From Vicinamibacteria bacterium (GTDB lineage Bacteria > Acidobacteriota > Vicinamibacteria > Fen-336): a stretch of DNA of 64,000 nt. Of this stretch, positions 5,642 to 45,698 are shown in pieces; position 1 is the stretch's first letter; each line of letters opens with the position of its first letter. The notes under the pieces were generated by a model that worked only from the letters and a program-made list of their open reading frames with translations, did no database searches and had not been told where the DNA came from. The stretch lies in the NCBI GenBank assembly GCA_041481445.1, contig JBGPBV010000016.1:12432-76431 (forward strand), read 5' to 3'. Position numbers and translations under genes: made by a program.

Positions 5642-5704
5642 CCGGAATTGTACCGGCGCGCGCTCGTTGACGCTCGCATGGACGCCGCGTACGCTTCTTC
5701 GATC

Positions 5705-6337
5705 ATGGCCCTGATCCAGTTCGTGGAGAACTACGACGATCTTTCGACCGACCGCGGCTTCCAGTTCAAGTTCTATTGCGACAAGTGCCGCAACGGGTAC
5801 ATGTCGGCCTTCCAGGCCTCGGTGGTGGGCACCGCGGGCAGCCTCCTCCGCGCCGCGGGCGACCTCTTCGGCGGCGTGTTCAGCCAGGCCGGCTCCAGCG
5901 CCTACGAGATCCAGCGCGCGGTGGGCGGCCAGGCCCACGACAGCGCGCTGCAGGCCGCGGTCACGGAGGTCAAGCCCAACTTCACGCAGTGCGTGCGCTG
6001 CGGGAAGTGGGTCTGCAACACCGTGTGCTGGAATGCCGACCGGGGCCTCTGCTCCAACTGCGCCCCCCAGACCGAGGAGGAGATCGCGGCCGCCCAGGCC
6101 CAGGCCCAGGTGGAGCAGATCCACTCCAAGGTGCGCGAGCGCGACCAGACGAGGGGCCTCGACCTCGACGACCAGATGGTCGCGCGCTGCCCCAAGTGCT
6201 CAGCCCAGACCGCGGGCGGGAAGTTCTGCCCCGAGTGCGGCGCCCCCCTCCACCCGCGGGACGCCTGCGCCCAGTGCGGGGCCAAGATGGCCCCGGCGGC
6301 GAAGTTCTGTCCCGAGTGCGGGGCCCGGAGGGCCTGA
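5705..6337 (+). CDS. multi-zinc-ribbon protein (Cys-rich N-domain plus C-terminal double zinc ribbon)
   Basis: ATG at 5705 (MALIQFVENYDD). N-domain cysteines: CDKC...CVRCGKWVC...CSNC. C-terminal ribbons: CPKC..FCPECGA and CAQCG..FCPECGA. Divergent from the IMPase-ARH gene with a 63-nt spacer. Confidence 0.65.
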   Translation: MALIQFVENYDDLSTDRGFQFKFYCDKCRNGYMSAFQASVVGTAGSLLRAAGDLFGGVFSQAGSSAYEIQRAVGGQAHDSALQAAVTEVKPNFTQCVRCGKWVCNTVCWNADRGLCSNCAPQTEEEIAAAQAQAQVEQIHSKVRERDQTRGLDLDDQMVARCPKCSAQTAGGKFCPECGAPLHPRDACAQCGAKMAPAAKFCPECGARRA

Positions 6338-8860: not shown

Positions 8861-9238
8861 TCAGTTGGCGTGGTGGGTGGCGTCCGTCATCACGAGCCCG
8901 GAGCCGATCTGCTCGGGCAGCTTGATGATCGTGCCGAGGTCCGCCACGTCGCGGATCTTGCCCTCGACCTTCACGCGGGCGCCCCGCCGGGGGACGCCGT
9001 GGCTCGAGATCACCCAGATCGTGCCCGTCCCGTCGTCGAGCTTGAAGGCGCCGTGACCGAGAAGGGACATGCTCTCCAGGACGTTCCCGGCGAGTTGGAC
9101 GTCGTCGCGGTGGGTGTACTTCTGCGGCTCGGCCAGGATGCGCGCCACCGTCGTCGTGGCACAGCCCATCGAGGACAGGGTCAGGGCGCCGAGCAGGAGC
9201 AGCACCCCTGTCCGCGGCGCCGGTTTCATGTAGGCCAT
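8861..9238 (-). CDS. small lipoprotein (OB-fold-like, hypothetical)
   Basis: MAYMKPAPRTGVLLLLGALTLSSMGC lipobox. About 125 aa. Start at 9238 or 9229. Confidence 0.55.
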   Translation of the reverse strand: MAYMKPAPRTGVLLLLGALTLSSMGCATTTVARILAEPQKYTHRDDVQLAGNVLESMSLLGHGAFKLDDGTGTIWVISSHGVPRRGARVKVEGKIRDVADLGTIIKLPEQIGSGLVMTDATHHAN

Positions 9239-9340
9239 GCAGGATCTCCCCTCGTCTTCTAGCGTAGCATCGGACCCCCGCGAGTTCCGGGCGCTCGATT
9301 TCGGACCCGCGAAGGTGCAACATGCGGCCCCGAAGTCCTT

Positions 9341-11131
9341 ATGTCCGCTCCCCGGATGCGCTTTCGCCTGAAGGGGCAGGTCGACGACCTGCCCCGCACG
9401 TTCCTGCTGTTCGCGGACGGAGAGACGCGGGTCGGCAGCGCGCCCACCAACGACGTCGTCCTGCCGCAGGCCGGGGTGTCCCGCCGGCACGCCGTCCTCC
9501 GGGCCTGCGAGGGGGGCTTCGAGGTCACCGACCTCGAGAGCAAGAACGGCGTCCACGTCAACGGCGTGCGCACCGCCTCCGCGGTCCTGGCCGCCGGCGA
9601 CGAGGTACGCTTCGGATCCGTCTCGCTGGTCCTCGATCCGATCGACGAGGCCGACGTCGAGCTGGCGCTCGCCCTCGACGGTCGGGTCCCGGCGGCGCGG
9701 GCGCGTGAAGCGGCGGAGCGCGCCACCGAGACGTGGGCGGGCGCGGAGCCTGTGGACGCGCTCGCGGTCGTCGAGCACCTGCTGGGCCGGTTGCGCGGCG
9801 GTCCCGCCGCCCTGGGGGATGCGCTCACCCGCCTCGTCGAAGAGGCCGGCCTGCAGGGCTGCTGCATCGCCGAGGTCCAGGAAGGCTCGCCGGTCGTGGT
9901 CGCGGCCGCGGGCACGCTACAGGCGGTGGACGAGACGCGAGTGCTCGCCGCCGTGCAGGGCGCGGAGGGGCCGGACGCGACTTCCGGCGTGCTGGCCGGC
10001 GCTCCCGACCTCGTGTGGTCCGCGATGCCCGGCCATCCGCCCCGCGTCGCCCTCGCCTGGGGCGGTCGCCGCGCGGCTTCCCTGGAGCCGGTCCTCCGCA
10101 TCCTGGTGCAGGCCGCGGCCTGGCCGGAGGCGGCGCCCCGACGCAGACACGCGGCGCCGGAGCCTCCGCGCCCGCTCGTGTTCCCCACCCACTACGTCCG
10201 CGGGACGTCGCGTCCCATGATGGCGCTGTACGCCCTCATGGAGCCCATCGCCAACACCGGCCTGCCCGTCCTCCTCATCGGCGAGACGGGGGCGGGCAAG
10301 GAGGACGTGGCGCGCGCCCTGCACTTGTCGTCGGCGCGCGTGGGCGGCCCCTTCGTCCCCGTGAACTGCGCGGCCATCCCGTCCGAGCTCCTCGAGGCGG
10401 AGCTGTTCGGCGTCGGCAAGGGCGCGGCCACGGGGGTGGCGCCGCGGACGGGGCGCTTCCAGGCCGCCCACGGCGGTACGCTGTTCCTGGACGAGATCGG
10501 CGAGCTCGGCCTCCCCCTCCAGGCCAAGCTGCTGCGCGCGCTGGAGAGCGGCGAGGTGGAGCCGCTGGCCGCCGCCCCCGTGCGCGTCGACCTGCGCATC
10601 GTGGCCGCCACCAACGTCGACGTCGCGACGCGCATCGAGGCCGGCCAGTTCCGTGCCGACCTCTACTATCGCCTGAGCGGAGCCGTCCTGCGGATCCCAC
10701 CCCTGCGCGAGCGGCGGGGGGACATCCCCACCCTGATCGACGGGATCCTCCGCCCGCTCGCGGTCGCCTCCGGCAAGCCCGTCCGAGGCGTGACCGCCAA
10801 GGCCCTGGTCGCCCTCGTCGACTACGACTGGCCCGGCAACGTCCGCGAGCTGGTGCACGAGATGCACCGCCTGTTCCACGGCTGCCCGGCCGGGGAGGCC
10901 GTGGAATTCGGCATGCTCCGCGACGATATCCGGGCGGGACCCCGCGCCGCGCGGAGAGCGCCGGACGGAGGCTCCCTGGAGCTGCAGCCCCAGGTCGACG
11001 CCCTCGAGGGCCGCCTCATCCAGGAGGCGCTCGCGCGGAGCGGCGGCAACCGGACGGAGGCCGCGAAGCTGCTGGGCATCTCGCGCAACGGCCTCGCTCT
11101 CAAGATCACGCGGCTCGGGCTCGACGCCTGA
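9341..11131 (+). CDS. FHA-domain sigma-54-dependent transcriptional activator (bacterial enhancer-binding protein)
   Basis: N-terminal FHA domain (GSAPTNDVVL...VSRRHAVL...SKNGVHVNG). Central AAA+ sigma-54 interaction domain (GETGAGKE Walker A, GAFTGA-like GKGAATGV, DEIGEL). C-terminal Fis-type HTH. Confidence 0.85.
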   Translation: MSAPRMRFRLKGQVDDLPRTFLLFADGETRVGSAPTNDVVLPQAGVSRRHAVLRACEGGFEVTDLESKNGVHVNGVRTASAVLAAGDEVRFGSVSLVLDPIDEADVELALALDGRVPAARAREAAERATETWAGAEPVDALAVVEHLLGRLRGGPAALGDALTRLVEEAGLQGCCIAEVQEGSPVVVAAAGTLQAVDETRVLAAVQGAEGPDATSGVLAGAPDLVWSAMPGHPPRVALAWGGRRAASLEPVLRILVQAAAWPEAAPRRRHAAPEPPRPLVFPTHYVRGTSRPMMALYALMEPIANTGLPVLLIGETGAGKEDVARALHLSSARVGGPFVPVNCAAIPSELLEAELFGVGKGAATGVAPRTGRFQAAHGGTLFLDEIGELGLPLQAKLLRALESGEVEPLAAAPVRVDLRIVAATNVDVATRIEAGQFRADLYYRLSGAVLRIPPLRERRGDIPTLIDGILRPLAVASGKPVRGVTAKALVALVDYDWPGNVRELVHEMHRLFHGCPAGEAVEFGMLRDDIRAGPRAARRAPDGGSLELQPQVDALEGRLIQEALARSGGNRTEAAKLLGISRNGLALKITRLGLDA

Positions 11132-11144
11132 AGGCGGGCCGCGT

Positions 11145-13277
11145 TCAGCGGCCGCGACTGCTCCGGCGGCTACGGTCGTGCGTCCAGCGCCAGGACGATC
11201 GGATCAGCTCGTCGCGTACCTCCATCACGCCGCGGCGCGCCGGGAGCGGCGCGGCCACGGCCCCGATGAGCGGGAAGAGGGCATCCCGGATCGCCGCCGG
11301 CAGCACCTGGTCGAGATATTCGAGGGCGGTCCCCCGCAAGGCCGCGTCGTGGCCGCGTACGGCGCGGCGCGCGATGTCGATCGGCTCTCCCTCCCGGGCC
11401 AGGGCCAGGATCGTGAAGACGTGGTCGAGCCGGATCGGGTCCGCGTGCCCTCCGAGCTCCTCCATCTCACGCTGCGCCGCCGCGAACGCCCGATCCGCGG
11501 GGACGGCCAGCCCCGCGCGCTGGCGTAGCCGGAGGAGGGCCGCCCCCGAGCGGTAGCGCACGTCGAAACGCTCGCATTCCAGGCCGGCGAGCAGGCCGTC
11601 GGCGGCGCGCCGGGTCGGAGCGGAGGCCAGCACGCGCGCGGCGCGCCGGCGGATCACGGGGTCCACCGCGGGGTCGAGCAACGCATCCACGAGCTGGCCG
11701 GTGAACCGGGACGCGGCCGGCCGCAAGGCGGGGACCACGTCCTTGAAGAGGTCGTCCCGCCGCAGCAGAGGCAGGGCGGCGGCGACGGCGGTCGCGTCCG
11801 AGAGGCCGAGCGCGAGGGCGGCGCGGATCCGGACGGGATCGCTCGAGCGCAGGTCGGCCACCTGACTCCCTTTCGGCTCCTCCTCCGCCGCCGCCGCCGG
11901 CACCGTCTCCTCCCGTCCGGCCTCTTCGCGCCCGGCGCTCTCCACCGCCCGCTGGGTCGTGGAATCCACGACCTCCTCCTGCTCGAGCCGGACCACGCCG
12001 CGGCGGAGGCTCTCCACCAGGGCCGTCACGTACGCGCGGTGGAAGCGCCACGTGACGGCCAGCATGGCCAGGGCCGCCGCCGTCGCCAGCAGGGCCAGCG
12101 CCCGGCCCACATGAGGACCGGCCACGACGAGGGCGAGGGCAGTGGCTCCGCTCCCCGCGAGCGTGCCCAGGCGGTCGGCGCCGACGTCGATCCAGGGCTT
12201 GGCCGGCCGCTTGAGGGTGTGGGGCAGGGGCGTGTAGAGCAGCTCGTAGGAAGAGCGGAACGTGGAATTCCTCAGGACGGCCTCCGCACCGCGGAGCAGG
12301 ACCATGACGTTCATGCGCGGGATCACGCTGGCCACGCCCGCGAGGAGGGCCACGACCAGTGGATGCGTGGCCAGCGTGCCGGCCAGGCCGAGCCGCGTGA
12401 GCGATCGCCTCACCAGGGAGGCCTGCACGATCAGCCCGGCCAACCCGGTGAAGGTGTGGAAGGCCGCGAAGAACCCGGCCAACGCCTGGCCTTGGGCAAA
12501 CCGGCCGGCGGCGGCCGCGTTGAACGCGTAGTCCAGGAGCGCCTCCACGAACGCGCAGAGCACCATCAGCGCGGCCAGGGCGCGCAGGTAGGGATCCCGG
12601 GCGAGCCAGGCGAGCGACGGCTCGGACCGCGCCGGCTCCGCGTCCACGCGCGGCGACGGCCCCGGCCGCCCGGCGGCGGGCCGGCTCCGCCCGATCCCGC
12701 GCAGCGCCAGCGCGCACAGCACGAGCAGGCCCGCGAGACCGAGGAGCAGCGTGGGCACGCGGACCAGACGGGACGCGCGCCAGGTCAGGGCCCCCCCGAG
12801 GACGCCGCCCACGCTGGCCCCCGCCCCGATCGTGCCCATGGCCTTCCGGGCCGCGTGCGGGTCGAAGCTCTCGTTGATCAGGGACCAGTACCCGGAGACC
12901 AGAGTGGCCCCGAACGTGGCCACGTGCAGGTAGACGAGGGCGGCCGCCGCCCGCGGCGCGCCCAGGCTCAGCGCCCACTCCAGGGCCAGGAGAAAGGCGC
13001 TCGACCAGAGCATCATGCGCACCACTGCCCCGGGATGGCGGCGGGCGGTGACACGCGACAGCGCGGCCACTGCGATCAGGGAGATCGCGGCGCCGGCGGC
13101 CAGGGCCAGCGGCAGCGTCGTGACCGGGAACTCCGAGAGGAAGAACGCGTCGCGGACGACCTTGGCCGCCACCTGCTGGCCGACCAGGAGCCCCGCGCCC
13201 AGGGCGGCGCGCAGGGCGGTGACCGGACCCGTTTCGGGGCTCGATCCGCCCTCGGCGGCGTCGGCTTCACTGCTCAT
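11145..13277 (-). CDS. polytopic membrane transporter (MFS / ATP:ADP-antiporter-like) fused to C-terminal HEAT/PBS-lyase repeat domain
   Basis: 710 aa. About 12 predicted TM helices in the N-terminal 450 aa. C-terminal repeated D-x-VR-x-AA-x-AL HEAT-like repeats. The transporter-family assignment is from memory and low-confidence. Confidence 0.65.
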   Translation of the reverse strand: MSSEADAAEGGSSPETGPVTALRAALGAGLLVGQQVAAKVVRDAFFLSEFPVTTLPLALAAGAAISLIAVAALSRVTARRHPGAVVRMMLWSSAFLLALEWALSLGAPRAAAALVYLHVATFGATLVSGYWSLINESFDPHAARKAMGTIGAGASVGGVLGGALTWRASRLVRVPTLLLGLAGLLVLCALALRGIGRSRPAAGRPGPSPRVDAEPARSEPSLAWLARDPYLRALAALMVLCAFVEALLDYAFNAAAAGRFAQGQALAGFFAAFHTFTGLAGLIVQASLVRRSLTRLGLAGTLATHPLVVALLAGVASVIPRMNVMVLLRGAEAVLRNSTFRSSYELLYTPLPHTLKRPAKPWIDVGADRLGTLAGSGATALALVVAGPHVGRALALLATAAALAMLAVTWRFHRAYVTALVESLRRGVVRLEQEEVVDSTTQRAVESAGREEAGREETVPAAAAEEEPKGSQVADLRSSDPVRIRAALALGLSDATAVAAALPLLRRDDLFKDVVPALRPAASRFTGQLVDALLDPAVDPVIRRRAARVLASAPTRRAADGLLAGLECERFDVRYRSGAALLRLRQRAGLAVPADRAFAAAQREMEELGGHADPIRLDHVFTILALAREGEPIDIARRAVRGHDAALRGTALEYLDQVLPAAIRDALFPLIGAVAAPLPARRGVMEVRDELIRSSWRWTHDRSRRSSRGR

Positions 13278-13379
13278 GCGCTCCCGTTCCGCGGTACGAT
13301 CAGGCTGCCAAGATCAGCGCATCGTACGCCCGCCGGCCTCCTCGGCCACGGCCCGCGGGCCAGCGTGGGAGCGGGAGCC

Positions 13380-16300
13380 ATGCCCTCCACGGATCCCGAA
13401 TCGTTCGCGGGGACCGAACGATTCGCCGTCCAGCGCCGCCTGGGTGCGGGGTCGTTCGGCGTCGTCTACGAGGCCTTCGACCGCCAGCGGAACACGCGCG
13501 TCGCGCTCAAGACCCTGCGCGTGGGCACGGGCCGCACCCTCTATCGTTTCAAGCAGGAGTTCCGGGCCCTGACCGACGTGTCTCATCCGAACCTGGTGAC
13601 CCTCTACGAGCTGCTGGCGGAGGGTGACCAGTGGTTCTTCACGATGGAGCACATCGACGGCGTGACCTTCCTGCAGCACGTGCGGGGCAGCGAGGGCGGG
13701 ACCTTCTCGAGCGGGTTCTCGTCCCCCACCACCCCGGCGCTGGAGGCGCTGCTCCGGCCGCGCGGGTCGCCGGGATCCTCCGCGTCCACGGCGGGGTCCT
13801 CGGAATCGACTCCGGACGACGAGCCCGAGCCGCCGCCCGACCGGGTGCCCGATCCGCGGCCGGCGCTGCCGCCGATTCCAGCCGGGATGTCGGGCGCGGT
13901 CTTCACCGACCGCCTTCGCGCCGCCCTCGCCCAGCTCGCGGAGGGCGTCGGGGCCCTGCACTCCGCGGGCAAGCTCCACCGCGACATCAAGCCCTCGAAC
14001 GTGCTCGTCACCGGGGCCGGGCGGGTGGTGCTGCTCGATTTCGGCCTCATCCGCGAGCTGCGACCGGACGTCACCTACACCGTCGAGACCGCGGGCACCC
14101 CCGCCTACATGTCGCCCGAGCAGGCGGCGGAGCGCCCGCTGAGCGAGTCCAGCGACTGGTACAGCGTGGGGGTCATGCTGTACGAGGCGCTCACCGGAAA
14201 CCTTCCGTTCACGGGGGCCACCCTGCAGGTCCTCCGCCGCAAGCAGCTCGACGAGCCACCGCCGCCCTCCACCGTGGTCCCGGACGTCCCCGAGGACCTC
14301 GACGTCCTGTGCCAGGGTCTCTTGCGCCGCGCGCCCGGGCAGCGGCCGTCCGGGGCGGAGGTGCTCCGGCGGCTCCGCCGCGATGCCGTCGCCGCCGAGG
14401 TCACGTCGCCGCCGCCCCTCTCCGCGCCCTCCGCGGGAGTTCCCTTCGTCGGCCGGACGGGCGAGCTCGCGCGGCTCCACGAGGCCTACGCCGTCCTGCG
14501 CAGCGGACGCGCCATCACCGTGACCGTGCACGGCGGATCCGGCATGGGCAAGACGGCCCTGGTCCGGTCGTTCCTCGACGAGGTGCGCGGGCAGAGTCCG
14601 CCGCCGGTGATCCTCTCCGGCCGCTGCTACGAGCGCGAATCGGTCCCCTACAAGGCCTTCGACAGCGTCGTGGACGCGCTGAGCCAGCACCTGCGCCGCC
14701 TCTCGCCGGCCACCGTCGAGGCCCTCCTGCCCCACGACCTGTCGGCGCTGGTGCGCCTGTTCCCGGTGCTGCGACAGGTGCGCGGAGTAGGCACGCAGCG
14801 GCCCCCGCCGGAGATCCCGGACTCCTACGAGCGGCGCCGGCGGGCCTTCGCCGCCTTGCGCGAGCTGTTCGTGCGGCTGGCCGATCGCTACCCGGTCGTG
14901 GTCGTGATGGACGACCTGCATTGGGGCGACGTGGACAGCGCGGCCCTGCTCACCGGGCTCATGGAGCCGCCGGACGCGCCGGCCGTGCTGATCATCGGGT
15001 GCTATCGGACGGAAGAGGCCACGACCAGCCCCCTGTTGTCCGTGCTCCTTCCCCTGCGCGACCTCCCGGCGGCGGCCCCCCTCGTGAAGATGGACATCCC
15101 GCTCGGGGAGCTGGGACCGGAGGAGGCGCGCGCGCTGGCCCGCGAGCTGCTCGGGCACCGTCCCCAGGCCACCGATCGCACGGAGGCGATCGTCCGCGAA
15201 GCACAGGGGAACCCGTTCCTGGTGGACGCCCTGTCCCGATTCTCGGCCGACGAGACCTCGGGCCTGGCCGTCGACGAGTTGATCTGGCGCCGCGTCCGCG
15301 AGATGCCCGAAGCCGCGCGGCGGCTCCTGGCCGTGGTGGCCACGGCCGGCCGGCCGATCGAGCTCGGGGTGGCCGTGCAGGCGGCCGGTCTCGAGGGCGA
15401 GGGCGACGCCGCGCTGGCCGCCCTGCGCTCCGTCCACTTCGTCCGCACCCGCCGGAGCTCGGCCTGGGAAGAGGTCGAGCCCTATCACGACCGCATCCGG
15501 TCCGCCGTCACCGCCGGCCTGCCCCCGGACGAGACGCGCCACGTCCACGAGCGGCTCGCCACCGCGCTCCTCGCCTCCCGTCGGGCGGATCCCGAGCGGC
15601 TGGCCGAGCACTTCCGGGAGGCCGGACACCTCGAGGAGGCCGCCGACTACGCGGCCGCCGCCGCCGACGCTGCCGCGGAAGCGCTCGCCTTCGAGCGCGC
15701 GGCCCGCCTGTATCGGCTGTCGCTGAACCTGGTCGCGCATCCCCGGCCCCAGGACCAGCGGCTGCGGGTCCTTCTCGGCCACGCCCTCGCCAATGCGGGG
15801 CGCGGCCGCGAGTCCGCCGAGGCCTACCTGGCGGCGGTGGCGGGCGTGACCGACGCCTCCGAGCGGATCGATCTCCAGAGGCGGGCGGCCCAGCAGCTCC
15901 TCATGGCGGGGCATGTCGAGGCCGGGGACCGCCTGGTCGGCACCGTCCTGGACGCCGTGGGCATCTCCCGGCCCCGCACCACGCGCCAGGCCCTGGTCTC
16001 GCTGGTCCTGCGCCGCGCCTTCCTCTTCGTGCGTTGCTTCCCGCGCGCGTGGTTCCGCGAGCGCGAGGAGGCGCGGGTCCCCGCCCGCGACCTCCTCCGC
16101 ATCGACACCTGCTGGTCGATGGCGGTCGGCTTGGGGCTCATCGACATGATCCGGGCCGCGGAGTTCCACGCGCGCAGCCTGCAGCTCGCCCTGCGGGCGG
16201 GCGAGCCGTACCGCGTCGCCCGCGGGCTGGCCCTGGAGGCGGTGTTCGTGGGCGTGGGCGGGACGAGGACCCGCCATCGCGTGGATCGCCTGCTCGGCGA

Positions 16301-17264
16301 GGCCAACGCCCTGGCCTCGAAGCTGGGGCACGAGCACGCGCACGGAGTGGCGGCCATGGCGGACGGGATCTGCGCCTGGGTCCAGGGGCGCTGGAAGGAC
16401 GCACGGCGCCTGTGCGACGAAGCGACGGCCCTCCTGCGCGGGCAGCGCACGGGCGCGACCTGGGAGGCGGACAACGCGGAGATGTACGCGCTGGCGTCCC
16501 TGTTCATGCTGGGCGAAGTGACGGAGCTGTCGCGACGGCTGCCCCGGCTGCTCGAGCGCGCGGAGGACCGCGGCAACCTGATGATGGCCACCAGCCTCCG
16601 GCTGGGCGGCTTCTTCGCCCACATCGCCTGGCTGGCCGCCGACGATCCGGACGGCGCCCGGCGCGAGCTCGAGAGGGGGCTGGCCGCGTCCACCGAGGGC
16701 AAGTTCGACTTCCGGCACATCTGGGCGCGCGGGGCGCGGCGGGACATCGCCCTCTACACGGGCGTCGGGCTCGAGGCGACTGCTCCCATCGCCGAGGGCT
16801 GGCGGCGGGCGGCCCGGCTGCTCGACCGCTTCCCGCAGGCCGGCCTCATCCTCGGGATGTTCTCTCGCGCCCGGCGGCGGCTGGCCCTGGCCGCGGCCGC
16901 CGCCGATCCCGACGCCGTCGGCCCGCACCTCGAGCAGGCGGATCGACACGCGCGCGACATGCAGCGGCACCGGACGCGGTGGGGCGACGCGCTCGCGTTG
17001 CTCGTGCGGGCCGGAGCCTCCAGCATCCGTGGCCACCGCGAGCGCGCGATCGCGGAGGCCGCGGAGGCGGAGTCGCGTCTGGAGGCAGCGGACATGGCCC
17101 TCCACGCGGCGGCGGCCAGGCACGGCCGGGGCGAAGCGATCGGGGGCGAGGCCGGACGCGCCCTGGTCACGGAGGCGGAGGCCTGGATGACCGGCCAGTC
17201 CATCCGCCGTCCGGACCGCATGGCCCGCATGCTCGCCCCGGGAGCGTGGCGCAGGCCGAGCTAG
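13380..17264 (+). CDS. serine/threonine protein kinase with AAA_16-type ATPase and TPR-like helical C-terminal region (PknK/STAND-like)
   Basis: ATG at 13380. Hanks kinase motifs: GAGSFGVV, VALK, HRDIKPSNVL, DFG, TPAYMSPE. After a Pro-rich linker comes a P-loop (GGSGMGKTALV), then about 650 aa of alpha-helical repeats. ORFs 13314..17309(-) and 13631..17632(+) are frame artefacts. Confidence 0.85.
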   Translation: MPSTDPESFAGTERFAVQRRLGAGSFGVVYEAFDRQRNTRVALKTLRVGTGRTLYRFKQEFRALTDVSHPNLVTLYELLAEGDQWFFTMEHIDGVTFLQHVRGSEGGTFSSGFSSPTTPALEALLRPRGSPGSSASTAGSSESTPDDEPEPPPDRVPDPRPALPPIPAGMSGAVFTDRLRAALAQLAEGVGALHSAGKLHRDIKPSNVLVTGAGRVVLLDFGLIRELRPDVTYTVETAGTPAYMSPEQAAERPLSESSDWYSVGVMLYEALTGNLPFTGATLQVLRRKQLDEPPPPSTVVPDVPEDLDVLCQGLLRRAPGQRPSGAEVLRRLRRDAVAAEVTSPPPLSAPSAGVPFVGRTGELARLHEAYAVLRSGRAITVTVHGGSGMGKTALVRSFLDEVRGQSPPPVILSGRCYERESVPYKAFDSVVDALSQHLRRLSPATVEALLPHDLSALVRLFPVLRQVRGVGTQRPPPEIPDSYERRRRAFAALRELFVRLADRYPVVVVMDDLHWGDVDSAALLTGLMEPPDAPAVLIIGCYRTEEATTSPLLSVLLPLRDLPAAAPLVKMDIPLGELGPEEARALARELLGHRPQATDRTEAIVREAQGNPFLVDALSRFSADETSGLAVDELIWRRVREMPEAARRLLAVVATAGRPIELGVAVQAAGLEGEGDAALAALRSVHFVRTRRSSAWEEVEPYHDRIRSAVTAGLPPDETRHVHERLATALLASRRADPERLAEHFREAGHLEEAADYAAAAADAAAEALAFERAARLYRLSLNLVAHPRPQDQRLRVLLGHALANAGRGRESAEAYLAAVAGVTDASERIDLQRRAAQQLLMAGHVEAGDRLVGTVLDAVGISRPRTTRQALVSLVLRRAFLFVRCFPRAWFREREEARVPARDLLRIDTCWSMAVGLGLIDMIRAAEFHARSLQLALRAGEPYRVARGLALEAVFVGVGGTRTRHRVDRLLGEANALASKLGHEHAHGVAAMADGICAWVQGRWKDARRLCDEATALLRGQRTGATWEADNAEMYALASLFMLGEVTELSRRLPRLLERAEDRGNLMMATSLRLGGFFAHIAWLAADDPDGARRELERGLAASTEGKFDFRHIWARGARRDIALYTGVGLEATAPIAEGWRRAARLLDRFPQAGLILGMFSRARRRLALAAAAADPDAVGPHLEQADRHARDMQRHRTRWGDALALLVRAGASSIRGHRERAIAEAAEAESRLEAADMALHAAAARHGRGEAIGGEAGRALVTEAEAWMTGQSIRRPDRMARMLAPGAWRRPS

Positions 17265-17289
17265 CCGTCTCCGGCGGCCGACCTCCGCG

Positions 17290-17445
17290 CGTGCCTTCGT
17301 CCGTGGCACGGTCCACCGCCGCCACCACCGCCGCGGGGGCCTCTTCGAACAGGAAGTGGCCTGCGCTCGGCACCGTCTCCAGCTGGAACGAAGGAAGGCC
17401 GTCCGCGAGCCGCCGGATGTCCGCTTCGGTGATGGCGGTCGGCGG
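17290..17445 (-). pseudogene. C-terminal fragment of an alpha/beta hydrolase (about 50 codons)
   Basis: Minus-frame peptide ...ADIRRLADGLPSFQLETVPSAGHFLFEEAPAAVVAAVDRA matches the typical alpha/beta-hydrolase C-terminus. The upstream frame is Arg-rich junk with no start. Confidence 0.35.
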
Positions 17446-17632
17446 CCGCGCCGACCTCGCCGCGCGCGTTCCCGGCCTGTGGGACCTGCTGACGCACGAC
17501 AACCCCTTCTCGTCCGAGCGCGCGCGGCGTGAGCTAGGATGGTCGCCCGTCATCCCGCCCTCGGAAGGCCTCCCGGAGGCGTTCCGCTGGTGGCACGACC
17601 ACCGGTCCCGCCGGCAGAGAGAGGAGCACTGA
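17428..17632 (+). pseudogene. C-terminal fragment of an NAD-dependent epimerase/dehydratase (about 65 codons)
   Basis: ...NPFSSERARRELGWSPVIPPSEGLPEAFRWW... matches the canonical epimerase C-terminus. No upstream coding frame. Confidence 0.35.
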
Positions 17633-17635
17633 GAC

Positions 17636-18544
17636 ATGCCTCGTGCCTTGACCCTGATCACCGTTCCGATCACCGTCGCCATCGCCCTGGCCGCCCCCGC
17701 GGCCGCGTCCGAGGACCTGCGCGCCCCCGGGGCGAAGGTCGAGAAGCTGGCCGGAGATTTCTCGTTCACCGAGGGCCCGACCGCCGACGCCGCCGGCAAC
17801 GTCTTCTTCACCGACCAGCCGGGCGACCGGATCATGAAGTGGGGCGTGGACGGAAAGCTCACGACCTTCCTCCAGCCCGCGGGACGCAGCAACGGCATGT
17901 ATTTCGACCGCGCCGGGAACCTCATCGCCTGCGCGGACGAGAAGAACGCGCTCTGGTCCATCGGCAAGGACGGCCAGATCACGGTGATCTGGACGGAGTA
18001 CCAGGGCAAGAAGCTGAACGGGCCCAACGACGTCTGGGTCCATCCGAGCGGCAGCCTCTACTTCACCGACCCCTTCTACAAGCGGCCATGGTGGTCACAC
18101 GACGCGCCGCCGCAGGACGGCCAGCACGTCTATCGCCTGTCCGCCGATCGCAAGACGATCACGCGCGTGACGAGCGACCTCGAGCAGCCCAACGGCATCA
18201 TCGGCTCGCCCGACGGCAAGACGCTGTACGTGGCGGACATCAAGGCCGGCAAGACCTACGCCTACGACATCCAGGCGGACGGCAGCCTTGCCGGCAAGCG
18301 GCTGCGCGCCGCGCTCGGCTCCGACGGGATGACCCTGGACGACAAAGGCAACCTGTACCTGACCGGCAAGGGCGTGCACGTGTTCGACAAGACGGGCGCG
18401 GAGATCCAGGTCTTCGACATCCCCGAGGACTGGACGGCGAACGTGAGCTTCGGCGGGGCCGGCCACCGCACGCTGTTCATCACCGCCAGCAAGGGGCTCT
18501 ACGCGGTCCGGCTGCGGGTCAAGGGCGCGAACGCGGCCAAGTAG
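17636..18544 (+). CDS. SMP-30/gluconolactonase/LRE-family beta-propeller hydrolase, secreted
   Basis: Signal peptide. Family motifs FTEGPTADAAGNVFFTD and NGPNDV. Confidence 0.85.
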   Translation: MPRALTLITVPITVAIALAAPAAASEDLRAPGAKVEKLAGDFSFTEGPTADAAGNVFFTDQPGDRIMKWGVDGKLTTFLQPAGRSNGMYFDRAGNLIACADEKNALWSIGKDGQITVIWTEYQGKKLNGPNDVWVHPSGSLYFTDPFYKRPWWSHDAPPQDGQHVYRLSADRKTITRVTSDLEQPNGIIGSPDGKTLYVADIKAGKTYAYDIQADGSLAGKRLRAALGSDGMTLDDKGNLYLTGKGVHVFDKTGAEIQVFDIPEDWTANVSFGGAGHRTLFITASKGLYAVRLRVKGANAAK

Positions 18545-39682: not shown

Positions 39683-42600
39683 TCAGTGCCCCGCGGAATC
39701 CCCAGATCGGGGTATTTGGCGCGTCCACGATCGGGTCAGGGCCCTCAGCCAGCCGGCTGGACCGCGTGAGGACGCGGCCGGAAAGGCCACGTGCCCGGGA
39801 ACCGTGAGCTCCACTTCGGTACCGGCTCCGGGGCGGCTCCACAGCCGCAACCGGCCGCCGATCCTTTCCGACCGCTCGCGCATCCCCGAGAGTCCCCAGT
39901 GGCCGTCGCGCCCCGCGCGGAGGACCTCGGCGTCGATCCCCTTCCCGTCGTCGCGCACGAGGACACGGAGCCGGCGGGCCTCGCGTTCGACTCCGACCTC
40001 GATACGGGTCGCCCCCGAGTGCCGGAACGCGTTGATGAGCGCTTCCCGTCCGATGCGGTAGACCTCGTCGCGGATCATCGGATGCAGGCGGCGGGGCGGC
40101 CCTCCGCCGATCACGCGGAAGGCAACGTCGTCCCTCACTCCGAGCTCGTCCCGGATGCGCGAGAACGACTGCTCGAGATCGTCGAGGCTGCTCTGGGACG
40201 AGCGGAGGCCCCGCACGGCGTTCCGGCCCTCTTCGATGACCCGCTTGATCAGCTCGAGGACCCCGGCCAGGCTTCCCCTCTCGGGCGAGCCTGGCGGCAT
40301 GCGGTCCACCGCCAGGTGGAGCTGCATCGAAGCGCTCAGGAACCCCTGCAGCAGCGTGTCGTGCAGCTCCTGCGCGATGCGCGTCCGCTCGGCCAGCCGC
40401 TCCTCGAACCGGACGTTCAACTGGCGCGTCAAGCGATGGAGCCGCATCCGGTAGAGGCCGAGCAGGATCAGCGCGCCGGCCAGCGCGCTCGTCAAGCGAA
40501 ACCATCGCGTCTGCCAGACCACGGGTTCGATGTCGAATCCGAGCGCGGCCTCGGCGCCGTTCCAGAAGCCCTCGCTGTTCGAGGCCATGACTCGGAACTG
40601 GTAGGCGCCGGGCGCGAGGTTGGTGTACACGGCCTCCCGCGCGGAGAAGGGCTCGCTCCAGCCGCGATCGAATCCGTCGAGCCGATAGCGGAATCGGATC
40701 TCGTCCGGGGCGCCCAGGCTGACTCCGGAATAGCCGAGGGTGACGCGCCGCGATCCCGCGGGTATCGCGTGCGTCCCCTCCAGATCGATGAGGTTGCCGT
40801 CGGCGGACAGGGCCTCGATGCGGGCCACGACGGGAGCCGCGCTGCTGGTGGCGCGCACGGGATCGACGACGGAGAGGCCGCGGCTCATCGAGAACCAGAT
40901 CCGGCCGAACAGGTCGGCCACCACCGACCGGTGCCGGCGGGCGACCTCCGTGCTGTACAGGCCATCGGAGGGGCCGTACTCCGCCACTTCCGCGCGTCCC
41001 GGGGAGGGGTCGAGGAGCTGGTCACGCCGGGCCCGCAGCACCCGCGTCGAGGTGGCGATCCAGAGCCATCCCTGGCGGTCCTCCGCCAGCCCGAAGATCG
41101 GCTCGTGGAGCGACCCTGGCACGCCGCCCGGCACCCGGATCCCTTCCGGACCGAGCCGCGCGAGCCCGTCACCGGTCCCTATCCAGAGGCCGCCCGCGGA
41201 GTCCTCCAGGAGGCAGCTCACGTCGTCGGACGGCAATCCGTCGCGGGTCGTGAAATATCGCCAGTGACCCTTCGAGAGCGCGCCGAGGCCGCTCGGCGTG
41301 GCGAACCACGTCGTGCCGTCGGCGGTGTCCACGATCGACACGACGGTGTTGGAGACGAGGCCACTCTCGGAGTCGTAGGTCGTGAACCGGCCATCCCGGA
41401 AGCGGCTGGCGCCGCTCTCGAGCGTTCCTGCCCAGACGGTGCCGTCGCGGCTCTCGTGGACGGCGTACACCGTGTCGTCGACGAGGCCGTCCGCGGTCCG
41501 GTACGTCCGAGCCACGACGGCGCCGCCCCTGGTGACCAGGCGCGTCAGCCCGCCCGCTTTCCGGCCGACCCAGAGACCGTCCTTGCCGCCCGCGAGCGAG
41601 TAGACCACGTCCCCCGGTAGCCCGTCCGCGGTGACCTTGCCCACCCGCCCGTTGTGGAGCCAGAAGAGCCCGCCGCCCAGGGGCGCGAACCACGTGCGTC
41701 CCTCGGCGTCGACGTGGATCGGCCCGCTGCTCTCCGACGGCAGCCCTTCGGCGGGCCCGTAGGTGGTGAAGCTGGTGTCGCGGAGGCGCTCGAGGCCACG
41801 GGGAGTGCCGACCCACAGGCTCCCTTCGCGGTCTTCGAAGAGGGCGGTCACCGCGACACGGGCCGCCGGATCCTCGAAGCGGGAGACGCCGCGCGCGTTC
41901 ACGCGCAGCAGGCCCTCGGCGGTGCCGATCCAGACGTTCGACTCGCGATCCACCGTCATCGTCGACGCCACCACCCGTCGCAGACCAGGGGCGAGCCCGT
42001 CCGCGCTGATCCCGCTTCCGTTCCAGCGCACCATGCCTTTCGGCGTGGCCACCCACACGTCTCGGGCGCCCACGGCGAGCACGGCGCTGATGGTCCGATC
42101 GGGAAGTCCCTGCCTCACCGCGATGACCTGTCCCTGGACGGCACAGAAGAGGCCTTCGCCCTGCGTTCCCATCCAGATGCGGCCGTCCCCCGCTTCCGTC
42201 ATCGAGGTCACGGGAGACCGCGCGGGCAGGGAGGCGCGTGGGGCGAGGCTCTCCACGCGCTCCCCACTCCAGCGCAGGGGGCCGTTCACGATGCCGGCCA
42301 TCATCATGGTGCCGTCGGGAGCGCGCGCCATCGCGGTGATCGCATCCTCCATCGTCTCCAGGGAGGGCACGCTCTCGAACCGGCGGTCGCGATAGCGCAG
42401 GACCCGGGGCCCGCCGAGCCTGACCCACATGGTGCCGCGCCCGTCCACGGTCAGCCCCAGGACCTGGGTGATCGACGGCGACGCGGAGCCCGGCTCCGGA
42501 AAGCGGCGGAAGGCCGAGCCGTCGAAGCGGTACAGTCCCCGGTCGGTTCCGAGCCAGAGGTATCCGTCCGCGGTCTGGCTGATGGCCTGGACGGTTCCCC

Positions 42601-42754
42601 CCGGGAATCCGCGGTCGGCGCCCCAGCGTTCCCGCACGTACTGGGACATCGTCCGGTCGGGGTCGATGGCCTGGGCGGTGCCGGCGAGGCACGTCACCGC
42701 CACCGCGGCCCAGAGCCCAACCCGTCGACGCGCCGCGCCACCTCCGAGCCTCAC
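39683..42754 (-). CDS. sensor histidine kinase with periplasmic two-component-regulator beta-propeller (Y_Y_Y-type) domain, HisKA_3 and HATPase_c
   Basis: GTG start at 42754 overlaps the upstream TGA (GTGA). Signal peptide and repeated propeller blades (DG.LW.GT..GL.R). TM followed by ERLAERTRIAQELHDTLLQG (H-box), then N-box, G1 and G2 (DDGKGID, GLSGMRER). Confidence 0.8.
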   Translation of the reverse strand: MRLGGGAARRRVGLWAAVAVTCLAGTAQAIDPDRTMSQYVRERWGADRGFPGGTVQAISQTADGYLWLGTDRGLYRFDGSAFRRFPEPGSASPSITQVLGLTVDGRGTMWVRLGGPRVLRYRDRRFESVPSLETMEDAITAMARAPDGTMMMAGIVNGPLRWSGERVESLAPRASLPARSPVTSMTEAGDGRIWMGTQGEGLFCAVQGQVIAVRQGLPDRTISAVLAVGARDVWVATPKGMVRWNGSGISADGLAPGLRRVVASTMTVDRESNVWIGTAEGLLRVNARGVSRFEDPAARVAVTALFEDREGSLWVGTPRGLERLRDTSFTTYGPAEGLPSESSGPIHVDAEGRTWFAPLGGGLFWLHNGRVGKVTADGLPGDVVYSLAGGKDGLWVGRKAGGLTRLVTRGGAVVARTYRTADGLVDDTVYAVHESRDGTVWAGTLESGASRFRDGRFTTYDSESGLVSNTVVSIVDTADGTTWFATPSGLGALSKGHWRYFTTRDGLPSDDVSCLLEDSAGGLWIGTGDGLARLGPEGIRVPGGVPGSLHEPIFGLAEDRQGWLWIATSTRVLRARRDQLLDPSPGRAEVAEYGPSDGLYSTEVARRHRSVVADLFGRIWFSMSRGLSVVDPVRATSSAAPVVARIEALSADGNLIDLEGTHAIPAGSRRVTLGYSGVSLGAPDEIRFRYRLDGFDRGWSEPFSAREAVYTNLAPGAYQFRVMASNSEGFWNGAEAALGFDIEPVVWQTRWFRLTSALAGALILLGLYRMRLHRLTRQLNVRFEERLAERTRIAQELHDTLLQGFLSASMQLHLAVDRMPPGSPERGSLAGVLELIKRVIEEGRNAVRGLRSSQSSLDDLEQSFSRIRDELGVRDDVAFRVIGGGPPRRLHPMIRDEVYRIGREALINAFRHSGATRIEVGVEREARRLRVLVRDDGKGIDAEVLRAGRDGHWGLSGMRERSERIGGRLRLWSRPGAGTEVELTVPGHVAFPAASSRGPAGWLRALTRSWTRQIPRSGDSAGH

Positions 42755-43800
42755 GGGAGGTATTCGAACTTCTCGATCACGACCTCCGTCCCGCGCTCCA
42801 GGGCCCGCGCGCTCCGGCGGAAGACATAGAGGTTCATGCGCACCGTCTCGTTGCCCGGGGAGGGCACGCCCGACGTGAACGTGTGCTCGGCGACCGCCGG
42901 CGCGCGGTTCTCGGGGCCAGCCCCGCGGACGGTCCGGGCCATGAGGCGGCCGGGCTCCCAGCGGAGCCCGTGGGTCAGGACGCCCGGAGGCGCCACGAAG
43001 GGCCAGACGTTCGCGGCGACGTAATAGGGCTGGACCACGTACTGCGCGTTCTTCGCCGCCGGCTCGCCCCACCGGCTGACCTCGATGTCCATCTCGCGAT
43101 GGTTCTCGCTCGCGGCCGGTCCGTCCCAGGTGAACAGGGTCAGTACCACCGCCGGCTCCAGTTGCGACACGTCGCGCACGACGAACCGGTACGAGCCATA
43201 CCCGAGCCGGCGCGTGAGGCGCACTTCTGCGCAGGTCCAGCGCGGCGCCTCTCCCCCGATGCGGAGGTGCATCGCTCCGCTTCCGTCCGTCCAGGCGTTG
43301 GCGGGATCGTAGTCGTTGGTGCCGCCCCGGTCGCTGGGGGCGGCGCGGGCGATCCATTCGTATCCGCTGAACTGGATCGTGTGATGTTGGGCGCGCGCCG
43401 AGGGGTCACCCGGTGCGATCGTGACGGCCACGACGCCGCCGCCGGCAGGCGGCAACGTCTCCGTGGAGAGCGGCGGACGATATCCGGCATCGACGAGGAG
43501 GGCCGCGTACTCCGTCCCCAGGTGGGTGGAGCTCGTCCAGGTCGAGTCGGCACGGACCTCCGTGAACGGCTGCCGGGCCTCCGGCTGGACCCACCACACC
43601 CCGCTCTTGGCGAACAACACGATGCGCTGCCCGCGCTGCGCGCCGACCACGCGGCCTTCGATCACGTCGAGCGTGTCCGGTCCGCCCTTGTCCGCGGGCG
43701 GGATCCTCGTGAATTGGATCGAGGGCCCACCGTCGCCCTGGCGGCCGGCGCAGCCGGTCAGGAGGAGCCACGGTACGACCAGCAGGAGCCTGAGCCTCAC
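42751..43800 (-). CDS. lipoprotein: N-terminal domain of unknown function plus C-terminal GH16-like (concanavalin-type glycoside hydrolase) domain
   Basis: Lipobox LLLTGC. The N-domain is paralogous to the pseudo-sensor's periplasmic domain. The C-terminal domain has a GH16-type E-x-D-x-E catalytic motif (REMDIEVSRWG). Confidence 0.6.
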   Translation of the reverse strand: MRLRLLLVVPWLLLTGCAGRQGDGGPSIQFTRIPPADKGGPDTLDVIEGRVVGAQRGQRIVLFAKSGVWWVQPEARQPFTEVRADSTWTSSTHLGTEYAALLVDAGYRPPLSTETLPPAGGGVVAVTIAPGDPSARAQHHTIQFSGYEWIARAAPSDRGGTNDYDPANAWTDGSGAMHLRIGGEAPRWTCAEVRLTRRLGYGSYRFVVRDVSQLEPAVVLTLFTWDGPAASENHREMDIEVSRWGEPAAKNAQYVVQPYYVAANVWPFVAPPGVLTHGLRWEPGRLMARTVRGAGPENRAPAVAEHTFTSGVPSPGNETVRMNLYVFRRSARALERGTEVVIEKFEYLP

Positions 43801-43996: not shown

Positions 43997-44869
43997 GTGA
44001 CGTCCAACAGGGTCAGCAACGATGGCATCCCCGATCACATGCCGCCGTTGCTGCGGCGGCGCCTCGAGCGTGCGGAGGCCTGGGCCGGCAACGAGAAAAC
44101 GGCGGCTCTCGTCGAGATGCCAGGTCTGGTGGCATGGGTGCATTCCGTGCCCAGCGACTCCAGTACGGGTGGCGGCGACGTCCACTACCTGTCCGTCTGC
44201 CCCAGCGGGATCGTCTCCCGGATCGCCCTTGCCGACGTGAGCGGGCACGGACAGGCCGTGATGAGCGTCGGTGAGAAGCTGCGTGAGCTCATGCTCCGAT
44301 ACCTCACGGCGCTGGAACAGGTCGGGCTCATGCGGGATCTGAGTCGAGCGGTCCGGGAAGAACTGGACGGCGTGCACTACGCCACGATGGTAGCGGTCGG
44401 ATGGCATGGCCGCCGCCGCCTGCTCGTCGTGACGAATGCGGGGCACCCCCCGCCGTGTTGGTACCGCGCGGCCCTTGGTGAATGGAGTTGGATTGGAGCG
44501 CGACACGCCAGCGAGCGAGGGCGGACGGTCGGCGTTCCCCTCGGCCTGCTCGCCGACAGCAGCTACGACCGCGCGGTACTCAAGCCCGAGATAGGCGACC
44601 TGGTGGTGCTGTACACGGACGGGGTCTTTGAAGCCTCGAACGAGGCGGGAGACGAGCTGGGTCGCGACGGGCTGATGAGGATCGCGCGCGGGTTGGACGC
44701 GAGCTCGGCCGAGGCTTTCGGAAGCCAGTTGGCGGCCGCGCTGCGCCGCTTCCGCGGACGCGCGGAACCCACCGACGATCAGACGATCATCGTCCTGCAG
44801 AGGGTGGCTCCCGAGACGTCGCCAAGTGGATCCCGGCCTGACCCACGGAAACGGGCCGCGCGGAAATAG
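43997..44869 (+). CDS. PP2C-family (SpoIIE-like) serine/threonine phosphatase, stand-alone
   Basis: A GGAGGG RBS precedes a GTG at 43997; an alternative ATG is at 44039. SpoIIE-like metal-binding motifs ALADVSGHG and YTDGVFEA. Confidence 0.7.
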   Translation: MTSNRVSNDGIPDHMPPLLRRRLERAEAWAGNEKTAALVEMPGLVAWVHSVPSDSSTGGGDVHYLSVCPSGIVSRIALADVSGHGQAVMSVGEKLRELMLRYLTALEQVGLMRDLSRAVREELDGVHYATMVAVGWHGRRRLLVVTNAGHPPPCWYRAALGEWSWIGARHASERGRTVGVPLGLLADSSYDRAVLKPEIGDLVVLYTDGVFEASNEAGDELGRDGLMRIARGLDASSAEAFGSQLAAALRRFRGRAEPTDDQTIIVLQRVAPETSPSGSRPDPRKRAARK

Positions 44870-45026
44870 CTCCCCGCCCCTCCCCCTAACGAGGTATGCG
44901 CAGGCCCCTCCATTGCGTGGGGCGGAAACGACCCGATTGCGTGATGCGCGCGCGGCGGCCGGCCCGCTAGCATCCGGCGTTCGCTGCGCAACCGGACCGC
45001 GCAGGGTTCGAGAGGAGGCAAAGAGC

Positions 45027-45698
45027 ATGACGGCCAGACCCATCGTGTTCGTCGTCGACGCCGACGTCTCCGTGCGTGAGTCCCTGGAGCTGCTGATCGA
45101 CCGCAGTGGCTGGCAGCCGAGGACGTTCGCGTCGGCGCCGGAGTTCCTGGCTCAGGCGCGTGTCCCCGCTCCGAGCTGCATGGTGCTCGACGTCGCTCTC
45201 CCGGGCCTCAGCGGCCTCCACCTGCAGAAGCTCGTCGCCGACCGGACCGACATGCCGATCATCTTCCTCACCGGCTCCGGCGACGTGGCCATGACCGTCC
45301 AGGCCATGAAGGCGGGCGCCGTGGAGTTCCTGACCAAGCCGTTCCGTCCCGACGTGCTCGTTGGCGCCATCCGCGAAGCGCTCGAGCGCAGCTGGCAGGC
45401 ACTGGCGCGGGAGACGGCGCTGAAGTCTCTCCGTGAGTCCTACGCGTCCCTCAGCCGCCGCGAACGGGAAGTGATGGCCCTGGTCGTCGCCGGGCTCCTG
45501 AACAAGCAGGTCGGGGGCGAGCTCGGCATCAGCGAGATCACCGTCAAGGCGCACCGCGGCCAGGTGATGCGGAAGATGCAGGCCGACTCCCTCGCCGCCC
45601 TGGTGAAGATGGCGGCGAGACTCGACCTTCCCGCCGCCTGGCCGGCGGAGCCGGTTCGCCCGGTCGCGGTGACCGCCTATGGCCAGTTGTCCCTGTGA
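45027..45698 (+). CDS. FixJ/LuxR-family response regulator
   Basis: A GAGGAGG RBS precedes the ATG at 45027. REC domain (IVFVVDAD...CMVLDVALPGLSG). LuxR-type HTH (SRREREVMALVVAGLLNKQVGGELGISEITVKAHR). Confidence 0.85.
   Translation: MTARPIVFVVDADVSVRESLELLIDRSGWQPRTFASAPEFLAQARVPAPSCMVLDVALPGLSGLHLQKLVADRTDMPIIFLTGSGDVAMTVQAMKAGAVEFLTKPFRPDVLVGAIREALERSWQALARETALKSLRESYASLSRREREVMALVVAGLLNKQVGGELGISEITVKAHRGQVMRKMQADSLAALVKMAARLDLPAAWPAEPVRPVAVTAYGQLSL

Follow-up and report, generated by a model that had tools for sequence, protein, structure and literature searches.

A candidate signalling cassette of an FHA-domain regulator, a TLC-like transporter and a Hanks-type kinase-STAND protein in Acidobacteriota

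In a 64,000-nucleotide (nt) stretch of a Vicinamibacteria bacterium genome (assembly GCA_041481445.1, contig JBGPBV010000016.1, positions 12,432 to 76,431; hereafter "the window", numbered from its first letter), three adjacent genes encode an FHA-domain regulator of the AAA+ enhancer-binding type, a TLC-like membrane transporter, and a Hanks-type Ser/Thr kinase fused to a STAND protein. Co-location of the activator, transporter and kinase genes exceeds chance, and the three genes most likely constitute one signalling unit. Our analysis favours, with moderate confidence, the view that this unit is a signalling cassette of a soil Acidobacteriota lineage, probably Vicinamibacteria, in which a STAND-gated kinase would produce phosphothreonine marks for the FHA domain of the regulator. 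The cassette is a variation on the known kinase-to-FHA-effector theme, with a putative mechanism, and carries two unexplained departures from textbook motifs, one in the FHA domain and one in the AAA+ domain; these departures make it a useful test case.

Recurrent linkage of the three genes

The three open reading frames (ORFs) that an earlier note on this DNA had delineated are present both in the ORF list and in the public record for GCA_041499675.1, which calls the same genes:

9341..11131, plus strand: FHA-GAF-AAA+(sigma-54-activator type)-HTH_8 regulator, 596 residues (Pfam; exact protein on record in GCA_041499675.1)
11145..13277, minus strand: TLC-like membrane protein with HEAT-like tail, 710 residues (weak TLC and MFS Pfam matches)
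13278..13379, no strand: divergent intergenic region, 102 nt (alignment of 7 type-A loci)
13380..17264, plus strand: Hanks kinase-STAND protein, 1,294 residues (Pfam, motifs, model)

Contig JBGQKR010000013.1 of GCA_041499675.1 differs from the window by 11 single-base mismatches in 21,776 nt (the compared stretch corresponds to approximately window 1-21100); in its record the regulator starts at 9356 (591 residues). Two of the 11 mismatches fall inside the regulator gene, at 9411 (Ser24Phe) and 9751.

We gathered related loci (numbered with the prefix L) from exact-protein look-ups, a genome-collection scan and a metagenome scan, and placed homologues of each cassette part on them by tblastn. 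In the order that we call type A, found in the window and in L005, L106, L107, L115, L119, L124 and L127, the regulator gene is followed by the transporter gene on the opposite strand and then by the kinase-STAND gene on the strand of the regulator; L005, L106 and L119 keep this trio without detectable homologues of the upstream genes common to the closest relatives. In type C, the kinase-STAND gene lies directly upstream of the regulator gene (L089, with a gap of 21 nt; L090 and L091 show a STAND C-terminus at this place). Transporter, kinase-STAND and regulator genes all run on the same strand in L100, and the regulator gene precedes the kinase-STAND gene with no transporter gene between them in L002. 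In type B (L086, L087, L088 and L103), a stand-alone kinase gene is divergent from an AAA_16-TPR gene, which is followed by a regulator gene whose product is only ~47% identical to that of the window. As type-B loci hold separate kinase and AAA_16-TPR genes, the functions fused in the window have undergone fission there. L092 and L093 carry the AAA_16-TPR gene and the regulator gene, on contigs that end before any kinase. The linkage spans at least three gene orders and activators of 33-67% identity.

The FHA domain itself has moved between partners. In L171 and L172, a kinase gene is divergent from an AAA_16-TPR_MalT gene that is followed by a gene for an FHA-TLC-HEAT protein, with an FHA domain of the same G-S subtype (see below) as in the regulator; the transporter-fused FHA domain of L171 is 49% identical to that of the L087 regulator. 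The fusion (P0359, 806 residues; L171 517-5668, and likewise in L172) is encoded by a gene that overlaps the upstream AAA_16-TPR_MalT gene, and the divergent kinase gene encodes a Zn-ribbon kinase. A divergent kinase-transporter pair without a regulator gene occurs in L168.

For a neighbourhood test we retained only loci with 4 kb or more of sequence on each side and counted a kinase if it lay within 6 kb. The genome-collection scan, made with the full-length activator alignment, was dominated by generic activators; 4 of its 80 loci belonged to the family, and the remainder served as generic enhancer-binding-protein (EBP) controls. A kinase is present in 9/10 family loci and in 2/54 controls (Fisher p 1.9e-8), and a STAND homologue in 7/10 and 0/54, respectively (Fisher p ~2e-7); these counts are not phylogenetically independent, several type-A loci being close relatives, and the controls are mostly from other phyla.

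That dependence weighs against the cassette, as does its non-obligate nature: the transporter comes without the kinase in L003 and L112, the kinase is a different one in L004, and none is in view in L040, L041 and L052. Such incomplete loci, together with a kinase family that is large (thousands of matches), could suggest that kinases and activators are merely abundant in these genomes and adjoin one another independently. We consider this very improbable given the multiple gene orders, the fusion and fission of parts, the divergence of the activators involved and the rarity of kinases beside the controls. An extension of the link to Myxococcota was rejected: the transporter homologue of Sorangium (L170) has neither kinase nor activator nearby.

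As a separate observation, a gene for a UvrA-like paralogue (928-949 residues) adjoins the FHA activator gene in two otherwise different loci (L003 4571-7357 and L086 9817-12666); in L003 a HEAT-repeat protein is encoded beside it.

Domain architectures and the proposed route

The 1,294-residue protein combines a kinase, a nucleotide-binding oligomerisation domain and a helical sensor:

13422..14384, plus strand: Hanks-type Ser/Thr kinase domain, residues 15-335 (all catalytic motifs; Pkinase E 6.9e-44)
14442..14996, plus strand: AAA_16 P-loop NTPase, the STAND nucleotide-binding oligomerisation domain (Walker A GGSGMGKT at residue 385, Walker B VVVVMDD at residue 506)
15522..17234, plus strand: TPR-like alpha-solenoid sensor, residues ~716-1285, preceded by a helical and winged-helix arm (predicted structure)

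The kinase motifs are intact (GAGSFGVV at residue 22, VALK at 41, HRDIKPSN at 200, DFG at 220 and SPE at 245). The kinase domain is interrupted by a disordered, variable, Ser/Thr/Pro-rich insert (residues ~103-175, nt 13686-13904) in which an S-P-T at residues 115-117 (nt 13722-13730) is semi-conserved, occurring in ~25/40 homologues; this S-P-T may serve as a phospho-acceptor or for docking. Residues 345-1294, as modelled (predicted local distance difference test (pLDDT) 81, predicted template-modelling score (pTM) 0.71), form a P-loop domain, a helical/winged-helix arm and a solenoid of ~30 helices. No TPR is detectable by sequence in this protein; the fold model nonetheless bears out its earlier description as a kinase-AAA-TPR STAND protein. 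Its family is conserved over the full length, with 46-72% identity to many homologues, and is specific to Acidobacteriota-like lineages.

Bacterial STAND/NLR-type proteins also act as anti-phage sensors, and on its architecture the kinase might be such a sensor with incidental neighbours; its kinase domain matches the PADLOC models mad6 and PD-T4-6. These matches are confined to the generic kinase domain, the NCBIfam MADS6 score is far under its cut-off, no mobile-element or defence-island context was seen around the genes, and the full-length conservation across many genomes is accompanied by fixed regulatory neighbours. We have therefore rejected the defence-system reading, for which PADLOC gave generic domain matches only, and we regard its probability as very low.

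The regulator is built from four domains:

9413..9640, plus strand: FHA domain, residues 25-100 (non-canonical subtype)
9758..10132, plus strand: GAF-fold sensor domain, residues ~140-264, between FHA and AAA+ (without Pfam match)
10202..10684, plus strand: AAA+ domain of the sigma-54-interaction type (Pfam Sigma54_activat)
11000..11113, plus strand: Fis-type HTH_8 DNA-binding domain (Pfam E 6e-13)

Pfam identifies FHA at residues 29-92 (E 1.2e-16), Sigma54_activat (PF00158) at residues 288-448 (E 1.8e-53), AAA_lid_14 and HTH_8, and the AAA+ domain has a Walker A motif (GETGAGKE, residue 314), a Walker B motif (LFLDE, residue 381) and GNVREL (residue 499). The 190 residues that separate FHA from AAA+ have no Pfam match and no sequence-level GAF signature. 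For the first 283 residues, AlphaFold (pLDDT 80) predicts an FHA sandwich with confidence, followed by a linker without order and a domain of alpha/beta fold, and the architecture is therefore FHA-GAF-AAA+-HTH. A profile of the N-terminal FHA and GAF domains matched 2,191 clusters (50% identity, E up to 1e-30), a total that includes multi-FHA proteins; ~100 of the best 150 matches are single-stretch proteins of ~600-650 residues with the architecture of the regulator. Members of the family come mainly from Acidobacteriota. By the names of their closest homologues, the regulator and the kinase point to Thermoanaerobaculia, Holophagales or "Acidobacteriota", and the transporter to Vicinamibacteria.

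The transporter has two parts:

11988..13277, minus strand: membrane domain, residues 1-430, TLC/MFS-like (PF03219 E 3.6e-5, TIGR00769 E 1.2e-6, both weak)
11148..11987, minus strand: cytoplasmic C-terminal HEAT-like helical domain, residues 431-710 (HEAT_2 below cut-off)

Roughly 9-11 hydrophobic segments are present. PF03219, the model of the 12-helix TLC core, scores 23.2 bits over the whole protein (cut-off 21), with no single stretch passing, and TIGR00769, whose cut-off is 387, reaches 27.8. HEAT_2 (PF13646) reaches 17.7 bits (E 0.0045) on the window protein, below its cut-off of 27.7, and is on record for ~15/120 transporter homologues; PF03219 is on record for many. The idea of a HEAT-fused transporter is supported by the PF03219 records of homologues and by the HEAT_2 records of many full-length ones; for the window protein alone both matches are weak. 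The family is small (191 matches at E up to 1e-10), its members have roughly 700 residues, and the Joint Genome Institute (JGI) names some of them ATP:ADP antiporters. No NCBIfam equivalog reached its cut-off for regulator, transporter or kinase.

In the route that we propose, the 1,294-residue protein would be a MalT-like STAND switch whose TPR-like solenoid senses a signal; the AAA_16 NTPase domain would then drive oligomerisation, which would gather the N-terminal Hanks kinase domains for trans-autophosphorylation. One or more phosphothreonines, on the kinase-STAND protein, on the regulator or on both, would be read by the regulator FHA domain, and this binding would lift an N-terminal repression of the AAA+ ring and so alter transcription. 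In some lineages, a transporter-borne FHA domain may read the phosphothreonine instead. The TLC-like, HEAT-tailed transporter of the same unit could be an effector under the control of the kinase or, alternatively, a sensor coupled to transport that communicates with the STAND module.

Several established systems are analogous: PknH-EmbR, PknF-Rv1747, PknK, AfsK-AfsR and the FHA activators of Myxococcus xanthus. In the M. tuberculosis PknH-EmbR pair, a Hanks kinase adjoins an FHA transcription factor; EmbR is a SARP/BTA regulator with a C-terminal canonical G-R FHA domain, whereas the window regulator is of the AAA+ enhancer-binding type with an N-terminal G-S FHA domain and a GAF domain, and PknH is a membrane receptor kinase, whereas the window kinase is a soluble STAND fusion. 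In PknF-Rv1747, also of M. tuberculosis, the kinase adjoins an ABC transporter with two FHA domains. The likeness lies in the triangle of kinase, FHA domain and transporter, in FHA-2 of Rv1747 being the best PDB sequence match of the regulator FHA domain (E 3.9e-13), and in the fusion of FHA to the transporter in L171; Rv1747 is, however, an ABC exporter, whereas the window transporter, with its HEAT-like tail, is a putative secondary carrier of the TLC/MFS type and has no FHA domain of its own. FHA-domain enhancer-binding proteins of M. xanthus were reportedly described by Jelsbak, Givskov and Kaiser in 2005 (PNAS 102:3010; cited in PMC12288465). The M. xanthus proteins embody the same idea, in that NtrC-type activators carry FHA where the receiver domain would stand and are thereby tied to Ser/Thr kinases; the window family differs in being mainly of Acidobacteriota. 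Compared with PknK of M. tuberculosis and the MalT/AfsR class (AfsK-AfsR of Streptomyces; AfsR structure, PMC10936776), the window STAND protein has no DNA-binding domain, and its output is proposed to pass through a separate FHA partner. Compared with the GAF-regulated enhancer-binding proteins NifA, NorR and Aquifex Nlh1 and Nlh2, the window regulator adds an N-terminal FHA domain and lacks a sequence-level GAF signature.

The notion that FHA domains link Ser/Thr kinases to sigma-54 activators is ~20 years old and has been short of dedicated, testable kinase-regulator pairs. A pair of this kind is what the cassette provides, the cognate kinase being encoded beside the regulator in many genomes. 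Since the family comes from poorly studied soil Acidobacteriota, answers obtained with it would bear on a sizeable share of soil bacterial signalling.

An FHA domain without the canonical arginine

The FHA fold and the hidden Markov model match (PF00498) are present in the regulator. In an alignment with GarA, Rv1747 and OdhI, however, the canonical phosphate-binding Arg of G-R is replaced by Ser33 (nt 9437-9439). Among the regulator and its 120 best homologues, this column holds S in 94 sequences, A in 14 and R in 3, i.e. Ser or Ala in 108/121. The remaining positions Ser47, Arg48, His50, Ser67, Asn69 and Gly70 are conserved in 113-120 of the 121 sequences. Lys68 (nt 9542-9544) directly precedes the conserved Asn69, and Lys or Arg occupies its position in 106/121. 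Across the FHA domains of all retrieved proteins, Lys or Arg stands before the Asn in 156/180 G-[S/A] domains versus 19/83 G-R domains. In other loci that we retrieved, FHA proteins encoded beside an ordinary stand-alone kinase have retained G-R, and a Gln precedes their Asn. We infer from these sequence comparisons that the G-S domain is an FHA subtype of its own, one whose positive charge may have shifted to the adjacent loop. No description of this subtype, or of the cassette, was found in the searchable literature, the coverage of which is incomplete.

The loss of the Arg counts against the proposed route. Mutation of the G-R Arg abolishes binding in the FHA domains studied, the replacement holds for most of the family, and compensation by the relocated Lys or Arg is putative. 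The earlier note had proposed a phospho-relay from kinase to FHA regulator and had made it depend on conservation of the FHA residues R, S and N. The functional link of activator, transporter and kinase is upheld by the recurring trios, the other gene orders and the L171 fusion; of the three residues, Ser and Asn are conserved and Arg is not, so that the doubt which that note attached to its relay is in part justified.

It is conceivable, though in our view unlikely, that the cassette is real and its FHA domain phosphothreonine-independent. The domain would then be a constitutive interaction or autoinhibitory module, docking for example on the STAND/TPR or HEAT domain, and the kinase would target the transporter, the GAF domain or unrelated substrates. 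Besides the family-wide absence of the phosphate-binding Arg, two observations point this way: the regulator FHA domain also matches the YscD-type FHA model PF16697 (E 2.2e-12), YscD being generally held to have a phospho-independent FHA-like domain, and the subtype is distinct, since FHA proteins beside ordinary stand-alone kinases keep G-R. Against it stands the near invariance of Ser47, Arg48, His50, Ser67 and Asn69 at the phosphopeptide site. Domains that have lost the Arg also tend to have Lys or Arg in the neighbouring loop, and a kinase with intact catalytic motifs so constantly nearby would otherwise be difficult to account for. The STAND-kinase-to-FHA route raises the question of whether an FHA domain without the canonical Arg can read phosphothreonine by means of a relocated Lys or Arg.

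In many metagenome loci (among L128-L164, e.g. L134, L140, L143, L152 and L158), a non-activator FHA protein with canonical G-R has a stand-alone kinase gene divergent ~1.1 kb upstream; this arrangement appears to be a separate, likewise conserved, kinase-FHA pair.

The AAA+ loop, promoter sequences and other genes of the window

The L1 loop of the regulator reads GAATGV in place of GAFTGA (residues 361-366, nt 10421-10438), with Ala for the Phe and the Thr retained. Nearly every one of the 120 best regulator homologues has G[AVI]ATGV, and G[AV]ATGV is also found in activators with receiver, GAF or TPR-GAF sensors from several phyla. The G[AV]ATGV loop marks a clade of AAA+ domains, and loci that combine it with receiver, GAF, TPR-GAF or FHA-GAF N-termini include L028, L038, L050, L059, L040, L041 and L052. 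The variant is catalogued, not characterised. Francke 2011 (PMC3162934, supplement) classed "GVATG__V, F3->A" of Solibacter and Desulfovibrio as defective, whereas Kazakov 2015 (PMC4641369) predicted that GVATGV in DVUA0100 still serves sigma-54 promoters. DVUA0100 of Desulfovibrio vulgaris and other "GVATGV" enhancer-binding proteins share the Phe-to-Ala change of the regulator (PMC4641369, PMC3162934), but DVUA0100 has a different, uncharacterised N-terminal region and is associated with type III secretion operons that have predicted sigma-54 promoters (PMC4641369), and no such promoters were found here. The question that this loop raises is whether an enhancer-binding ATPase with Ala for the GAFTGA Phe can activate sigma-54 polymerase.

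The promoter scans, like the loop, make the sigma-54 label uncertain. The sigma-54 consensus has 37 matches in the window (48.7 expected), with no excess, and 38 in 31 family loci (39 expected), where isolated good sites occur and are not conserved; no -24/-12 element lies near the three genes or in the spacer between transporter and kinase. The earlier note had called for the sigma-54 promoters controlled by the regulator to be identified, and no target promoters emerged from these scans. Its term "FHA-domain sigma-54 activator" is sound for the FHA, AAA+ and HTH domains, which Pfam identifies, and uncertain for sigma-54.

Divergent sigma-54-like sites in L040 and L052 were rejected as candidates, no conserved gene following them (one ORF is AraC-like, the other probably spurious). 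In L087 (11244-11569), divergent sigma-54-like elements, TGGCACTCCCCATGCA and TGGCACGCCCCTCGCT, lie 1.5 kb 3' of the type-B FHA activator gene and precede an operon for pyrroloquinoline-quinone (PQQ)-repeat and TonB-receptor proteins and a hydrolase gene; they are not kept in L086.

The divergent spacer, given earlier as 103 nt, counts 102 nt. Over 7 type-A loci it has 81% mean column identity, above the non-coding expectation, and both start codons are invariant. A conserved block (~13288-13332) contains TAnnAT boxes on both strands (TACGAT at 13295-13300, plus strand, and 13326-13321, minus strand), and the spacer of the relatives holds a palindrome, ATGGCGCC-N10-GGCGCCAT, which the window spacer lacks. 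A scan of 9200..17700 for consensus sigma-70 promoters and terminators gave nothing useful, and the spacer has no consensus sigma-70 site.

Such conservation could indicate that the flow is transcriptional, with the regulator binding the spacer block and so setting the expression of the transporter and kinase genes on its two sides. Given the missing Phe of GAFTGA, this control might be sigma-70-dependent: EBP-like proteins with a defective GAFTGA, namely TyrR, HupR and DhaR, work with sigma-70 (PMC3162934), and the absence of a -24/-12 element from the spacer is in keeping with this. Yet the palindrome is not kept in the window, and types B and C place the regulator gene in the operon of the STAND gene, type-B operons beginning at TTGACA-N17-TAnnnT promoters, an arrangement that fits co-expressed partners better; moreover, L171 keeps its kinase and STAND genes beside an FHA-transporter fusion that is devoid of any DNA-binding part. 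We consider this explanation improbable as a replacement for the STAND-kinase-to-FHA route, with which it is compatible as an added autoregulatory loop.

A broader interpretation, which we offer only tentatively, is that the window holds one form of an undescribed, widespread cassette of Acidobacteriota and neighbouring phyla: a Hanks kinase gated by a MalT-like STAND NTPase, fused or split, together with an FHA reader that has lost the phosphate-binding Arg and has a Lys or Arg shifted to the adjacent loop, carried either by a GAF-AAA+ regulator of the G[AV]ATGV clade or by a TLC-HEAT transporter. The G[AV]ATGV ATPases may, on that interpretation, contact RNA polymerase in a non-canonical manner.

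A small secreted lipoprotein-like ORF of 125 residues without Pfam match (window 8861-9238, minus strand) is divergent from the regulator gene. It is ~72% identical in the closest relatives (L104, L107, L110, L112, L114 and L115), and L100 has two unrelated small lipoprotein-like ORFs at the equivalent place. It is possible that the small lipoprotein-like ORFs beside the activator are targets of the regulator.

Elsewhere in the window, the following gene had been proposed to encode an antagonist of the kinase:

43997..44869, possibly starting at 43421: SpoIIE-family PP2C phosphatase (PF07228 E 2e-29)

The catalytic domain is present, but the gene lies 27 kb from the cassette in a two-component context, and no PP2C gene adjoins the cassette in the annotated related loci; we therefore rejected the phosphatase as an antagonist. 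The gene is flanked by one for a hybrid histidine kinase of Reg_prop/Y_Y_Y/HisKA_3 composition (39683..43357) and overlaps a NarL-type response regulator gene (44826..45698), and window 39683-45698 looks like a separate signalling locus.

On the minus strand at window 3857-6124, an inositol-monophosphatase-family domain is fused to an ADP-ribosylglycohydrolase domain in an ORF of 755 residues (594 residues in the public record). The G+C content of the window is ~72%; near position 18000, just 3' of the kinase gene, it drops from ~0.74 to ~0.68, and the remainder of the window stays lower.

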